A model generated the notes under the pieces. The model did not search any database and was not told the origin of the DNA. It saw nothing but the letters and a program-made list of their open reading frames with translations. Position numbers and translations under genes: made by a program. Below are positions 2,539-61,740 of a stretch of DNA of 64,000 nucleotides, in pieces (the first letter of the stretch is position 1; the number at the start of each line of letters is the position of its first letter). Where the stretch lies: the NCBI GenBank assembly GCA_951406725.2, contig OX597825.1, positions 14,818,001-14,882,000 on the forward strand, written 5' to 3'. This DNA comes from Octopus vulgaris. Its lineage: Eukaryota.

Positions 2539-2730
2539 ATGTCTGGTGCATCCAGAGACTAATTTCAGAGGTGCTTGTCTCCACTTTGAAAACATAAAGA
2601 CACAGGAAATGTGTCAAGTCCAATAGGAAACGTTGTTTCCTAGGGCTAAATAACAGTAGCATTCTTCCTTTTCATGGGACTGTCATATTAAGTTGACAAC
2701 ATACTATCATTTTATTGTGTTGTTATTCAT
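2539..2730 (+). mobile_element. Diverged, 5'-truncated copy of the hammerhead-bearing element at 61201-61484
   Basis: Colinear similarity: ggtgcttgtctccactttgaaaacataaagacacaggaaatgtgtcaag...ttcctagggctaaataacagtag...aagttgac vs ggtgcttgcctccccttcgcaaatataaggacacaagaaatgcgtcaaag...ttcctagggctaaatagcggtgg...aagttgac. Confidence 0.8.
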
Positions 2731-2772
2731 AAATCTTTCTGAGAGATTTAGAAAATTATTATTTCTATTTTC

Positions 2773-3068
<296 letters not shown>

Positions 3069-4814
3069 GAACAGGTATAAAGACTCAGAATCACATTTTA
3101 AAAACTCTACTTGTGCTCAAGAGAGGAATATATTCTTGAGTGTGTGTGTGTGTGTGTGCGTGTTATTCCATTGTTCTCCAAATATTGAACATTTGTAAAT
3201 GCTTTTACACGAAGCTGCGGATATAGAAAGACGCATAAATATAACGAAGTATTTTAAGCCAAAGAAATACTTGATATATGCGAAAATAAACTGAACTAAT
3301 TACATATGAACATTTCCTTCGTACTTGATGTGTTCCCAATTAATTCAGAACCACTTTTGTAAAGTAAACCCAAGTAGCAAACAACAAGTAGTTTTCACGA
3401 GAACTGTAATTTGGACATTTATTCATAGATATTAACTGAAGTATACCATCACATCTAGCGTGAAATTAGAAATACTTTGGCGACTGTCATAAGAATCAAT
3501 GTTTGTCATTTATGTACATTATTAGGGAGACATGTAATTGATCTAAACTTTATCCCCAAAGTATGCGACAGAAATAAATGGCCATATTATATGCCGCAAA
3601 GCAGCAATTACATAAATCTCAGAAAGCATGAAATGATGTTAACATGGCCCGCCTTTCCATTTTATTATGCGGAAGAGGTTTAATACAAAGTAGTATATTA
3701 TCGGAATTCAATTTTTTTTTTGTTTATCAGAGTGAAAGCCAACGGTGTGTCCAAGGGGAGAATTGTCATTTAAAGACTATATCTACTACACTGCACTGTT
3801 CACCATACTTAATGGCCGGCTAATTACCGGAAAAGTTTGCAGACGCATAACTAGCTATAATTGCATTACATTAGTTTCATAGACAGATTCCGATATAATA
3901 TGTTGCGATTTTCTTTAATTCGAATGCAGAACAATTTAGAGTGTATAAATATAACGTTCACGTCGTTGAAGAAATTGAAGCATTCTACAACGCATGGAAT
4001 CTTGCATGTTTAATATAATATATGGCGCACGTTTTAGAATAACTGCGGAACCATTTGAGTTGAATATTAATAAAACAGATGATATTGAATTGTTGCTTTC
4101 ATGGAAGAACACTAAGGGGGAACAAGCACACAAGTATAGGATGTCAGATAACGAAATTAAATATGTAAGCCATGTAATCAAGCTCTCTATAATTTCCGTT
4201 TCTAATATCACTAAGAATGAAATATTTAGATGCTGTGGAGACATTTAAATCTCTCATGGCAATAGAGAAGTAATCTTAACAGACTAAATTACAAGAGAAG
4301 ACACGGTTTCATAAATAGTATTTAAAAATTAACAAGGACTCGATGAACTCTTTGTTATGCATAATGAACTGTTTATTTGATCCTGTCAATGCTACCATAT
4401 TTGAAGTTCAGTTTGGGGAATATTTCCTCTCATATATAAATCACACACTCACATATAAGCGCACAAATACATGTATCAGATTTTATTTTTTCCCGCTAAA
4501 ACTAATGCCACTTAAACAATATACTTCGACTGAGTGATGACACCACCGATCCTACGCATGCTATATATTTTTATTCTGGAAGGTCGCATTAGTTCTCGGC
4601 TGTCACGCCTCGAGTACGGACGTGTAGTGCTCTGTAAATGTGTTTTCGTTATCCACCGAAAGTATAAAACAGACATATTGCATCAGTATACACACACACT
4701 TTACTCCACACAAGGACACATATTGAGACACATTTCCACACATATAGAGATGCACATCCCTACATACAAACATGATACATAGTTGCAAAACACACACACA
4801 AATACAGGCATGCA

Positions 4815-24822: not shown

Positions 24823-25415
24823 CTATTTCTTTACTACACAGAAGGAGCTAAACACAGAGAAGACAAACAAGGACAGGCAAACGGATGAAGTCGATTATGT
24901 CGACCCCAGTGCGTAACTAGTACTTATTTAATCGACCCCGAAAGGATGAAAGGTAAAGTCGATCTCGGCGGAATTTGAACTCAGAACATAGCGGCAGACG
25001 ACATACCTATTTCTTTACTACCCAGAAGGGGCTAAACACAGAGAGGACAAACAAAGACAGACGAACGGATCAAGTCGATTACATCGACCCTAGTGCGTAA
25101 CTGGTACTTATTTAATCGACCCCGATTAAAAGCAAAGGATGAAAAGCAAAGTCGACCTCGGCGGAATTTGAACTCAGAACATAGCAGCAGACGACATACC
25201 TATTTCTTTACTACCCAGAAGGGGCTAAACACAGAGAGGACAAACAAGGACAGACGAACGGATCAAGTCGATTACATCGACCCTAGTGCGTAACTGGTAC
25301 TTATTTAATCGACCCCGATTAAAAGCAAAGTCGACCTCGGCGGAATTTGAACTCAGAACGTAGCTGCAGACGAAATACCGCTAAGCATTTCACCTGGCGT
25401 GCTAACTTTTCTGCC
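24823..25415 (-). mobile_element. Family-B SINE with triplicated body (one head, three tandem body/tail units)
   Basis: Units of ~185-215 bp start at ctatttctttactac (24823, ~25007, ~25200); head remnant gcgtgctaacttttctgcca at the right end. Confidence 0.9.
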
Positions 25416-25885: not shown

Positions 25886-26299
25886 GGCGGCGAGCTGGCA
25901 GAAACGTTTGCACGCCAAGCAATATGCTTAGCGATATTTCGTCTGTCGCTACGTTCCTAGTTCAAATTCCGCCGAGGTCGACTTTGCCTTTCCTCCTCTC
26001 GGGGTCGATTAAATAATTACCAGTTATGCACTGGGGTCGATATAATCGACTTAATACGTTCGTCTGTCCTTGTTCGTCCTCTCTGTGTTTAGCCCCCTGT
26101 AGGTAGTAAAGAAATAGGTATTTCGTCTGCCCCTACGTTCTGAGTTCAAATTCCACCGAGGTCGACTTTGTCTTTCATCCTTTCGGGGTCGATAAATTAA
26201 GTACCAGTTACGCACTTTGGTCTATGTAATCAACTTAATCCATGTGTCTGTCCTTGTTTGTCCCCTCTATGTTTAGCCCCTTGTGGGCAGTAAAGAAAT
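25886..26299 (+). mobile_element. Family-B SINE with duplicated body and 19-bp TSD
   Basis: ggcggcgagctggcagaaacg head, two body units; TSD atattagattttctgttga (25866-25884) vs atattaaattttctgtgga (26301-26319). Confidence 0.92.
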
Positions 26300-27602: not shown

Positions 27603-28145
27603 TTGTCCTTAGGCCTGAAAATTCATCGACACCAATGCGTAACTGGTACTTATTTCATTCACCCTGAAATGATGAAAGGCAAAATCGACCTCGGCAGAAT
27701 TTGAACTCAGAACGTAGCGGCAGACGAAATACCTATTTGTTTACTACCCACAAGGAGCTAAACACAGATGGGACGAACAGGGACAGACAAACGGATGAAG
27801 TCGATTATATCTACATCAGTGCGTAACTGGTACTTATTTAATCGATCCCGAAAGGATGAAAGGCAAAGTCGACCTGCGCGGAATTTGAACTCAGAACGTT
27901 TCGACGGTCGAAATACCTATTTCTATAACTACCCACAAGGGGCTAAACACAGAGAGTATAAACAAGGACAGACAAACGGATTAAGTCGATTATATCGACC
28001 CCAGTGCGTAACTGGTACTTAATTTATCGACCCCGAAAGGATGAAAGGCAAAGTCGACGTCGGCGGAATTTGAACTCAGAACGTAGCGGCAGACGAAATA
28101 CCGTTAACCATTTTGCCCGCCTAAAGTTTCTTCCAGCTTGCCGTC
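27603..28145 (-). mobile_element. Family-B SINE multimer (about three body units)
   Basis: Repeated gcgtaactggtactta...gatgaaaggcaaagtcgacc...gaatttgaactcagaacg blocks; head ccagcttgccgtc at the right end. Confidence 0.88.
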
Positions 28146-39750: not shown

Positions 39751-41090
39751 GTCCACGGTTGTAACAATGAATTTTGCTCCACGGTTGCAACAATGAATTT
39801 TGCTCCACGGTTGTAACAAGGAATTTTGGTCCACGGTTGCAACAAGGAATTTTGGTCCACGGTTGTAACAAGGAATTTTGGTCCACGGTTGCAACAAGGA
39901 AATTTGGTCCACGGTTGCAACAAGGAATTTTGGTCCACGGTTGCTACAAGGAACTTTGGTCCACGGTTGCAACAATGAATTTTGGTCCACGGTTGCAACA
40001 AGGAATTTTGGTCCACGGTTGCACCAATGAATTTTGCTCCACTGTTGCAACAATTAATTTTGGTCGACGGTTGCAACAAGGAATTTTGGTCCAAGGTTGC
40101 AACAATGAATTTTGGTCCACGGTTGCAACAAGGAATTTTGGTCCACGGTTGCAACAAGGAATTTTGGTCCACGGTTGTAACAATGAATTTTGGTCCACGG
40201 TTGCAACAAGGAATTTTGGTCCACGGTTGCAACAAGGAATTTTGGTCCACGTTTGCAACAAGGAATTTTGGTCCACGGTTGAAACAAGGAATTTTGGTCC
40301 ACGGTTGCAACAAGGAATTTTGGTCCACGGTTGCAACAAGGAATTTTGGTCCACGGTTGCAACAATTAATTTTGGTCCACGGTTGCAACAAGGAATTTTA
40401 ATCCACGGTTGCAACAATGGATTTTGGTCCACGGTTGCAACAAGGAATTTTGGTCCACGGTTGCAACAAGGAATTTTGGTCCACGGTTGCAACAATTAAT
40501 TTTGGTCCACGGTTGCAACAAGGAATTTTAATCCACGGTTGCAACAATGGATTTTGGTCCACGGTTGCAACAAGGAATTTTGGTCCACGGTTGCAACAAG
40601 GAATTTTAATCCACGGTTGAAACAATTAATTTTGGTCCACGGTTGGAACAAGGAATTTTGGTCCACGGTTGCAACAAGGAATTTTGGTCCACGGTTGCAC
40701 CAATGAATTTTGATCCACTGTTGCAACAATTAATTTTGGTCGACGGTTGTAACAATGAATTTTGCTCCACGGTTGCAACAAGGAATTTTGGTCCACGGTT
40801 GTAACAATGAATTTTGGTCCCCGGTTGCAACAAGGAATTTTGGTCCACGGTTGCAACAAGGAATTTTGGTCCACGGTTGCAACAAGGAATTTTGGTCAAC
40901 GGTTGCAACAAGGAATTTTGGTCCACGGTTGCAACAAGGAATTTTGGTCCACGGTTGCAACAAGGAATTTTGGTCCACAGTTGCAACAATGAATTTTGGT
41001 CCAAGGTTGCAACAATGAATTTTGGTCCACGGTTGTAACAATGAATTTTGCTCCACGGTTGCAACAATGAATTTTGTTCCACAGTTGCAA
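39751..41090. repeat. 26-bp tandem satellite/minisatellite, ~51 copies (consensus GTCCACGGTTGCAACAAGGAATTTTG)
   Basis: Direct reading; no indels seen, substitutions only; generates the overlapping repetitive ORFs on both strands. Confidence 0.98.
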
Positions 41091-42238
41091 CTTACATTTT
41101 GGTATCTTAGTGACTTCTTATATTTGGGAATACGCGGTATTATTTCCAAACACTGAATCAAATTATTCCGCATCAGTTCTAATTTATGTTTAACACTTCT
41201 GATACAGAATATGAATATTAATACTACTCATAATATATGTTATAATATTGTTAAACTAAGCGCATAATACTATATCCGTCTATTTCATCATGGAGGTTTA
41301 ACGGCAACATGTAAAACACGTGACTGCTTTGGCTAATTATGCAATAAATTCGTTGCACAAGGTAGGGGAAATGTCATGCAGGAACTCTTGATGTTCTGCA
41401 GATAATAGATCTGAGTAAAGATACACATTTCATAGAGCTATTGGGCAACACTATTCTTAAACACCGTTTCTTCTATTCGTTGAATTCTTTATTGATAACC
41501 ATTATGGCATTCACTATTATACGTTAGTAAAGTAGCTTTTCTCCGATTTCAGTAAAATTGAGTGTAACACGACCATCAAGATCCATTATCTCTGCAGTCG
41601 CTTATTTCAACTTCCAGAAAAAAAAAAGACTTAAGTAATTGCAATTGGAAAAGTTACATGAGGATATAAAAATATGAAAGATGATAACCAGGAAGGTTGG
41701 AATACACGCACGTTATATCAGATTACTGTTGGAAATTTACGAAAACCTTTCGGTGATATCGCTCTATATCTCACAGAAAATATGTATTGAAGTCCAGAGA
41801 AGTTTATGCATTTCTGCATATTTTGAACTCACCTACTATTTAGGAATCCCTTTCCGAGCCTTCAATCATTCAAATATGTGTTTTTCGTAGACTGTCGTGT
41901 GAGTAGAGCTTACTTAGATTTTGTTTGCCCGAGCACTGGCTATGATTGTTAAAGCGATGGGTGGTGCTCTCGGGTCAACAATAAAAGAAGCAATAATGTT
42001 CATCTCCCAAAGAGCTGTTATCTCTTGCTGCATCTACTGCTTTCTATTTCCCTTTATCTTCTTCTGGCTTCTCTGCGCGAGAGACATTGAAGACGACTTA
42101 CTACCAGTCTTAGAGATTTGGAGCCCTACTAGTGTGCACTTGCAACACGAATGACCTTCACTTTGCTCCATTATTGACTATATGTCAAAGACTGCTGTGA
42201 GAAACCTGTCCTACTAAAAATTTGTGCGAAATCTATAT

Positions 42239-61200: not shown

Positions 61201-61484
61201 TTATATTATTGCGAAGCCATGGCAAGCATCGCAACTTGCTGGACTTGATACCCTGGACTGATGACGAGCAAAGACTCAGAAACATGCATGTCTCTAGGTG
61301 CAGGCCCCAGCTGGTGGGGGTGCTTGCCTCCCCTTCGCAAATATAAGGACACAAGAAATGCGTCAAAGCCGACAGGAAGCGTCGATGCTTCCTAGGGCTA
61401 AATAGCGGTGGTGTGATTCCCTTTACGGGACAGTTACGATAAGTTGACTGTATACAACCACTATATCCCTCCACCACCGCTCAT
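61201..61484 (+). mobile_element. Candidate non-LTR retrozyme: ~280-nt structured non-coding element with type I hammerhead
   Basis: GC-richer island, hammerhead at 61252-61298, extensive internal pairing, homologous copy at 2539-2730. Confidence 0.7.
61252..61298 (+). ncRNA. Type I hammerhead ribozyme, predicted cleavage after GUC at 61292
   Basis: Stem I cctgga/tctagg; CTGATGA 61258-61264; stem II gag/ctc (closing c.a mismatch); GAAA 61279-61282; stem III palindrome ACATGCATGT; GTC 61290-61292. Confidence 0.82.
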
Positions 61485-61550
61485 GTCTCTTTGAGACATT
61501 TAGAAATTCTATATTTCTAATATATTATTTTCATATTACTGTAATATTAA

Positions 61551-61740
61551 GGAGGTGAGCTGGCAGAATCATAAGCACGCCATTTGTACGTACTGAGTTC
61601 AAATTTCGCAGAGGTTGACGTTGTCGTTTGTACTTTCGAGGTCCATAAATTCAGTACCAGTTGAACACTGGGGTTTAATGTAATTGACCAGCATCCTTCC
61701 CAAACTTGTTAGACTTATGCCACAAATTGAAATCAATATT
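61551..61740 (+). mobile_element. Degenerate family-B SINE
   Basis: ggaggtgagctggcagaatcataagcacgcc...ctgagttcaaatttcgcagaggttgac...gtaccagttgaacactgggg. Confidence 0.78.

Follow-up and report, generated by a model that had tools for sequence, protein, structure and literature searches.

A 5’-truncated hammerhead repeat copy in the octopus genome: a candidate retrozyme family with a Penelope-type insertion footprint

The closest described relatives of the repeat analyzed here are the non-LTR retrozymes of metazoans, which, as presented in PMC7229834, combine a canonical type I hammerhead with a non-coding monomer in head-to-tail units, 350–390 bp long in mussel, and include the axolotl Rtz_353 with its ribozyme HHR_Amex2. 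The octopus repeat has the same design and a monomer of 353 bp. It departs from the published cases in that its copies, for the most part dispersed, truncated and inverted, end 3’ at two fixed sites (neither ‘truncat’ nor ‘inverted’ occurs in the main text of PMC7229834), and in that cleavage and circles, demonstrated for the metazoan retrozymes, are putative in the octopus family. Which enzyme and which RNA template stand behind animal retrozyme copies has been open since their description; Penelope-like elements (PLEs) have been proposed from co-occurrence and sequence likeness. Li, Clavereau and Pollet (2026; 10.64898/2026.07.22.740005) arrived at the same proposed dependence on PLEs and at the same monomer, dimer and multimer forms. 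Their case builds on co-occurrence in vertebrates and likeness to PLE pseudo-LTRs (pLTRs), molluscs not figuring in the list of classes that they sampled, while ours builds on the insertion footprint, no homologous pLTR having been found. PLE insertions are described as showing an inverted 5’ copy or pLTR, a tail at one end and a duplication of about 10 bp (PMC3846280, PMC8557442), and the anole PLE in vitro cuts and elongates each strand of AT-rich targets, using two internal start sites that lie in an AC-rich stem-loop and have the tail between them (PMC11167929). Tx1 LINEs, relevant here as putative visitors of the repeat, are known to insert specifically into transposons, microsatellites and U2 genes (PMC4494074). 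Our literature search returned no octopus retrozyme family; Repbase, Dfam, subscription papers and supplements lay outside the search and may list it. For the giant squid, 235 Hammerhead_1 matches have been mentioned (PMC6962438). We provisionally regard the octopus repeat as a new candidate non-LTR retrozyme family.

The window, i.e., the whole stretch of 64,000 nt from Octopus vulgaris that was analyzed, contains one hammerhead-bearing copy of this family, the features of which are collected in Table 1. Its monomer begins 43 nt late, its identity with the family majority amounts to 92.4% (compared over monomer positions 36–353), and it extends beyond position 61484, where the initial annotation had let it end, to 61520, thereby gaining two hairpins. 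The 9-bp duplication at its borders is AT-rich, swapped-flank controls reaching at least 8 bp in 3–4.5%, and it is only a candidate because the empty site is unseen. The single-register rod that had been proposed as the continuation of stem I is borne out: 27 of the 34 positions of its 5’ arm pair with the 3’ arm, 25 of them as Watson–Crick pairs, and folding yields z = −5.1 for the rod and z = −6.2 for 61201–61484 (0 of 200 shuffles each). The downstream 10-bp stem likewise proved to be as proposed, and so did the lack of a credible ORF or tRNA head, as the five ATG-started ORFs over the element encode 20–44 aa and the window holds no tRNA gene anywhere. Since it has a single hammerhead only, the window copy would be unable to give a cut-to-cut monomer alone.

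Table 1. Features of the retrozyme copy (window positions; S1 and S2 denote the first and second fixed 3’ end of the family)
Feature	Position	Strand	Remark
Candidate 9-bp target-site duplication, left	61202..61210	+	same 9-mer as 61521–61529
Rod 5’ arm extending stem I	61209..61242	+	LINEs insert in the equivalent part of other copies (monomer 62–81)
5’-truncated retrozyme monomer copy	61211..61520	+	approximately monomer 44–353 of 353 bp; similarity to other copies ends at 61520–61521
Type I hammerhead	61252..61298	+	stem I 61252–61257/61293–61298; core 61258–61264; predicted cut after 61292
Hammerhead inner parts	C.A 61265/61278; stem II 61266–61268/61275–61277	+	stem III 2 bp
10-nt palindrome spanning stem III and loop	61282..61291	+	would permit a double hammerhead
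Rod 3’ arm	61307..61340	+	pairs with 61209–61242
10-bp stem around two hairpins plus an unpaired AC-rich segment	61404..61481	+	61404–61413 is the exact reverse complement of 61472–61481
S1, upstream one of the two fixed 3’ end sites	61456..61466	+	AC-rich loop; monomer ~299 = window 61466; inferred reverse-transcription start
54-nt Penelope-type tail	61467..61520	+	hairpins 61483–61499 and 61500–61520; ends at S2, monomer 353
Candidate 9-bp target-site duplication, right	61521..61529	+	same 9-mer as 61202–61210

The type I core reported for this locus is present at 61258–61292 as the sole pattern match in the window, the motif alone being weak, with at least one match in 12 of 100 shuffles, unlike its structural context. 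In a comparison of 28 copies (the window copy plus 27 of 30 loci chosen by the core pattern), 85.5% of cells are paired, as against at most 42% in slid controls, and two-sided changes number 36 versus 14.2 after shuffling; for two of the five measures the shuffles did equally well or better, and common descent inflates such counts. Compensated pairs were found in stem I (three) and stem II (one). Stems I, II and the rod are covarying in this alignment, the family majority keeps the conserved core, and of the segments selected without reference to the core, 23 of 35 and 14 of 18 still have it in intact form. The pairing and the two-sided changes suggest that the hammerhead is under selection. 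The C.A mismatch at the base of stem II had been taken as a weakness of this particular copy; it is instead the family norm (61 of 77 copies, with U-A in 13), so that damage specific to the window copy is ruled out. Stem II also lacks the usual closing G-C pair. Folding gave a divided picture, as the rod forms stably while the minimum-energy fold does not contain the catalytic core: forcing the core costs 5.5 kcal/mol in the window copy, and the active form lies 5.5–5.9 kcal/mol above the minimum in nearest-neighbour folding. An advantage of a dimeric ribozyme was considered and rejected, the prediction being −309.7 versus −309.5 kcal/mol, with no gain over two single hammerheads. The Rfam scan that the initial annotation had suggested did not recognize the motif, as Hammerhead_1 (RF00163) gave no match for the window copy at E up to 10, and no hammerhead was matched in seven other loci at E up to 1. 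A described parallel exists in axolotl, where HHR_Amex2 is likewise mismatched at the base of stem II (U.U) and is a weak monomeric ribozyme, the monomer having been cleaved to 22% in an hour and the dimer more (PMC7229834). The octopus family hammerhead is, by prediction, likely to be active in self-cleavage.

The family, as derived from the first 30 loci, consists of a 353-bp non-coding monomer with 46% GC. A genome search gave 2,602 first-look candidates, 40 of which were scored, the best at 86–91% identity. Exact patterns occur 555 times for the terminal 28-mer and 332 times for the family’s 22-nt hammerhead core, with none in the control for either. Rough estimates corrected for divergence put the terminal hairpin in about 2,200 segments (exact in 10 of 40) and a hammerhead in 800–1,500 (exact in 15 of 35 and in 4 of 18); overall, the family comprises roughly 2,000 copies in the 2.8-Gb genome. 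The copies are dispersed over at least 20 chromosome-size contigs, and head-to-tail units occur in an array of ~4.1 units at C14 and as 2–3 units in L357 and L369. Copy number and tandem arrangement, for which the annotation had asked, turned out in favor of a retrozyme: the repeat shows a canonical type I hammerhead, a head-to-tail monomer within 150–450 bp, a GC content below 50%, and neither protein nor tRNA head, and the circular monomer is predicted to be strongly self-paired (z = −11). What had been proposed, a multicopy, non-coding family with a (as found here, covarying) hammerhead, stands in these respects; its true boundaries were missed, and so were the twin 3’ ends of Penelope type, the existence of inverted insertions and the targeting by LINEs. 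A looser hammerhead-core pattern matches 19,136 times genome-wide versus 2,263 times in the control, and 8 of 19 hand-picked loci read from this set belong to related ~350-bp families with the same layout. The surplus of core matches (~19,000 vs. 2,300), together with the lack of an Rfam match in all eight loci, suggests that ribozyme repeats are under-annotated in such genomes. Contigs from three presumed-RNA runs and one unlabelled large run match copy L002 mainly in its 3’ part, often within longer contigs, and carry no information on ends, strand or circles. Deep contigs of run X4 (presumed RNA, organism B) cover a hammerhead-less 3’ piece at L002:1499–1716 that is bordered by unique sequence to the left and right, as would be seen if an abundant host transcript contained a truncated copy.

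The free 3’ ends of the copies cluster at two sites. Among 70 such ends from 43 hammerhead-picked loci (28 by the exact core, 15 hand-chosen and favoring one variant), 33 lie at S1 (monomer 286–310, mode 299), 24 at S2 (340–353) and none at the cut site (125). A second set, comprising 142 arms from 84 loci picked by the S2 28-mer with three duplicates dropped, has 58 ends at S1 and 68 at S2, together 126 of 142, the sites being 54 nt apart. The 5’ ends of these arms are scattered over the whole monomer; a cleavage footprint sought among them did not appear, with no excess at monomer 126, two ends at 127 that both belong to one inverted junction, and three at 120–122. Inverted insertions (48) combine S1 with S2 in 33 cases, S1 with S1 in three and S2 with S2 in one, 11 having another end; in a partly overlapping set, 24 of 35 join S1 with S2. 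Target duplications of 10–15 bp accompany 15 of the 48 inverted insertions (17 others being located in (TA)n), compared with 11 of 352 swapped controls, and are seldom seen with direct insertions (2 of 41; 9 of 69 in a partly overlapping set). The copies display 5’ truncation, partial tandems, inverted 5’ copies and target duplications in AT-rich DNA, and by analogy with described elements this insertion pattern is the footprint of PLEs. We infer that one target strand was primed at S1 and the other at S2, and consider it very probable that the retrozyme was copied in by a PLE route. In 5’ truncation, partial tandems and the inverted 5’ copy the family resembles Pen2a_Av (PMC3846280), Poseidon of Anolis (PMC11167929) and non-autonomous Chlamys elements such as MRC1 (PMC8557442), as it does these endonuclease-bearing PLEs in the one-ended tail, the two internal starts, the AT-rich targets and the ~10-bp duplications. 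Unlike them, it has no ORF, a canonical instead of a minimal hammerhead, and a 54-nt tail; also unlike described PLEs, its hammerhead precedes S1 by 174 nt and S2 by 228 nt.

Candidates for an autonomous partner were sought among 6,136 GIY-YIG candidates in the genome, 150 of which were scored and 30 loci returned. Intact PLEs are present, including a young family with a 781-aa RT plus GIY-YIG ORF. No DNA common to the unit and a PLE was found among these 30 loci (150 of the 6,136 candidates having been scored) and four Nematis-like loci, the sole contact among the 30 being one adjacent insertion in opposite orientation; the 781-aa family, six smaller GIY-YIG groups and the Nematis-like family A were rejected as partners on these grounds. 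L178 was discarded as a retrozyme–PLE chimera, as it sits among several unrelated insertions, and so was the PLE fragment upstream of L177, which is separated from the unit by a SINE and 870 bp. Two observations on the resident PLEs themselves may be added. Two Neptune-like families have minimal hammerheads with swapped core pairs, U3-A8 in one and, by eye, A3-U8 in the other (L061 ~4565–4600 on G000:C16; 3’ ends of L051 and L178), and in the 781-aa family the main ORF is overlapped by another one upstream, this family also having two ends of its own ~38 nt apart.

Comparison of flanks revealed a common 1.64-kb insert at monomer 62–81, just 5’ of the hammerhead, with an AATAAA end and one ORF that terminates in a CCHC knuckle region (match just below cut-off). 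For 34 of 49 distinct 3’ ends of this ORF1-only element, the clan hammerhead region follows within 45 nt; by eye, eight of the others start with a target remnant and seven are unrelated. Junctions and retrozyme subfamilies vary between copies, short duplications occur, and the elements stack in arrays with a period of ~1.8 kb. An autonomous LINE of 5.3 kb encodes a CCHC ORF1 and an ORF2 with APE, RT and zf-RVT; of its 30 best 3’ ends, 27 precede a clan hammerhead, one is nested and two are off target. It sits mainly in sister families, with 1 of the 27 in a subfamily of the window copy’s family. Full-length members are flanked by the repeat on both sides with a ~20-bp duplication in 15 of 16 cases, and the flanks often have one private variant on both sides, two being discordant. 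Because duplications of ~10–20 bp lie inside the unit and the same subfamily occurs on both sides, we take the retrozyme to be the target of these LINEs. Among loci picked by the 3’ end only (L311–L330), 16 of 20 are full length, an unusual share for LINEs. By domain order, the inserted elements appear to be L1/Tx1-type LINEs and ORF1-only derivatives. Tx1 elements count as target-specific when one kind of sequence makes up more than 20% of flanks (PMC4494074), and the shares found here are 27/30 and 34/49. One-spot insertion and nested arrays are also known from Tx1L in Tx1D, Keno in U2 genes and Tx1-Mar in Mariner-N4 (PMC4494074); unlike in those cases, the target of the octopus elements is a hammerhead retrozyme clan. 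Our literature search found no Tx1 LINE targeting a retrozyme; the insertions would add a hammerhead repeat to the known site-specific LINE targets. Some inverted insertions (L180, L208, L212, L247) include LINE DNA within their arms, which implies that LINE–retrozyme composites were sometimes copied by the PLE route. As side observations, ORF1-only arrays in L260–L279 (e.g., G000:C4:70041500-70056000 and C4:27052000-27069000) hold many intact frames of 450–480 aa in head-to-tail order, and several of these arrays have no retrozyme-clan DNA nearby, so that their elements use another target; at L209 (G000:C10:40596559-40600227) an ORF1-only element is preceded by a 5’ piece of U1 snRNA, and at L350 (G000:C3:20816122-20819315) a LINE-like 3’ end stands immediately before a U2 gene start.

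An snRNA-type promoter has been reported for newt satellite 2, with the PSE ~58 nt upstream of the start (PMC2220036). In octopus, the hexamer ATCAGT lies 57–61 nt upstream of 14 of 14 U1 and 11 of 12 U2 loci (three read by eye), the twelfth U2 locus having a LINE-like 3’ end directly ahead of the start. Sister families have the same hexamer ~56 nt ahead of the LINE duplication, and so do 29 of 66 copies of the window copy’s family, a further 23 having a one-letter variant. Local alignment of the U1 upstream region with the unit gave a score that was matched by 79 of 1,000 shuffles, and a U1/U2 weight matrix, in which three U2 loci were mis-anchored, did not rank the site in the window copy’s family. 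A putative snRNA-type promoter in the retrozyme is thus to be taken as a lead; the window copy itself is devoid of the candidate promoter region.

We consider it moderately probable that the window copy is a 5’-truncated copy of a 353-bp hammerhead repeat pasted in by a PLE enzyme from a likely circular, unit-length RNA. According to this model, rare arrays with two or more hammerheads would be transcribed, the ribozyme would cut, and the unit-length RNA would be ligated; a PLE protein would then nick both strands of AT-rich DNA some 12–13 bp apart, and one cDNA would be primed at S1, the other at S2, each running round the RNA until falling off. The window copy would represent a product begun at S2 and would probably be a dead end. 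Against this explanation stands the S1–S2 tail of 54 nt, compared with 30–40 nt in described PLEs, and of nine predicted Xenopus retrozyme dimers only one was reported to be cleaved in vitro (10.64898/2026.07.22.740005). The lack of DNA common to the unit and a PLE among the 30 returned loci, the rarity of duplications at direct insertions, the energy cost of the active fold, the missing G-C closure of stem II and the absence of a dimer gain count against it as well. As to the template, 34 of the 142 arms cross the monomer junction. Tandem units within one insertion differ by 6.8% versus 13.6% between insertions and have 42 rare variants in common versus 2.3 expected, with the reservation that 10 of the 41 pairs stem from one array and that gene conversion could add likeness; inverted arms of one insertion differ by 7.2% versus 13.2% and have 19 common rare variants versus 1.9 expected. 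Lower divergence and common rare variants argue for one source of both arms or units, even though the partner unit is, on average, more distant than the nearest other insertion (5.5%). As arms cross the junction and units of one insertion have rare variants in common, the template would have been continuous, in agreement with the initial reading of the internal cut site as a sign of copying from a circular or multimeric RNA. A circle is the simplest account of these data, which uncut multimers or template jumps fit as well, and, given the PLE route, we judge a circular template to be fairly probable. That the same element and enzyme instead used an uncut linear multimer, or jumped between linear monomers, with circles absent or a side product, is possible but in our view rather unlikely. 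The S1/S2 footprints do not separate the two, arrays exist (C14, L357 and L369), the core is predicted to misfold, and the anole PLE used uncut RNA as its main template, hammerhead cleavage being dispensable and occurring in vitro only with protein (PMC11167929). Yet only 4 of the 142 arms hold two hammerheads where junction-crossing arms are common, the stems covary and the core has stayed intact in most independently picked segments (see above), and repeats of similar size in mussel, coral and axolotl accumulate as circles (PMC7229834).

Three further readings were weighed. If an autonomous PLE had the unit as its pseudo-LTR, the copies being truncated ends of that PLE, hammerheads and equivalent ends would be expected, since PLE pLTRs have both (PMC4209133, PMC3846280), and the scored GIY-YIG candidates are a small part of the total (150 of 6,136). 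We nevertheless hold this to be quite improbable: the unit has no RT plus GIY-YIG ORF between pLTRs as autonomous PLEs do, the only common non-simple neighbor directly joined in several loci (71 free 5’ and 145 free 3’ flanks) is the LINE ORF1 cassette, and upstream of units there is another unit, unique DNA or that cassette. PLE fragments near L153, L154 and L107 are apart from the unit or of different families. The suspicion that the sequence might be part of a longer autonomous element, voiced in the initial annotation, thus found no backing in these flanks, in which no PLE ORF is commonly joined to the unit. It is very improbable that the resident L1/Tx1-type LINEs moved the repeat, as their 3’ flank or as a SINE-like passenger. 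Such a role could be read from the succession of LINE 3’ end and clan hammerhead for both the autonomous (27/30) and the ORF1-only elements (34/49), and from the LINE DNA within inverted arms; however, the LINEs have their own duplications inside a unit of the same flanking subfamily, most retrozyme copies have no LINE, and the copies show PLE-type twin ends and no A-rich tail. Equally improbable is the reading that the repeat resembles a satellite, was spread through recombination of DNA and has a hammerhead that is an inert relic. The absence of an Rfam hammerhead match would suit it, as would the 3–4% divergence of copies from their own template and the 7.6% divergence of the window copy from the majority, whereas dispersal over many contigs, 3’ ends that are fixed while the 5’ ends vary, duplicated target sites and compensatory changes speak against it. 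The model of PLE-mediated copying from a likely circular RNA accordingly remains the one that we prefer.

The family displays the PLE footprint at the nucleotide level, with start sites that can be named at window positions 61466 and 61520, so that the published in vitro PLE assay would be able to test the PLE route directly. A bolder scheme, which we put forward tentatively and would not be surprised to see fail, has three layers of parasites in cephalopods: a ribozyme circle with an snRNA-type promoter of its own, a PLE that would copy it over repeated turns from S1 on one target strand and S2 on the other despite having no sequence in common with the unit, and Tx1-type LINEs that would home on the start site of the promoter just 5’ of the hammerhead, borrow the promoter, and sometimes travel as PLE-carried cargo.

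The neighborhood of the copy holds further repeats. Older clan 3’ fragments without a hammerhead lie at window positions 2548–2771 (+) and ~70–247 (−), and both terminate in a hairpin of the S2 type, next to which (AAT)n or (TA)n begins. A decayed RT fragment at 1477–2503 (−), 67% like the retrozyme-targeting LINE, adjoins the clan fragment at 2548 on the opposite strand. At 39751–41091, a 26-bp unit is repeated 51.6 times with 91% matches and a GC content above that of its surroundings. A SINE-like repeat of 184–193 bp occurs in tandem copies at 24823–25330, 25935–26299, 27625–28102 and ~61550–61720, and a fragment related to it stands directly 3’ of the retrozyme copy.
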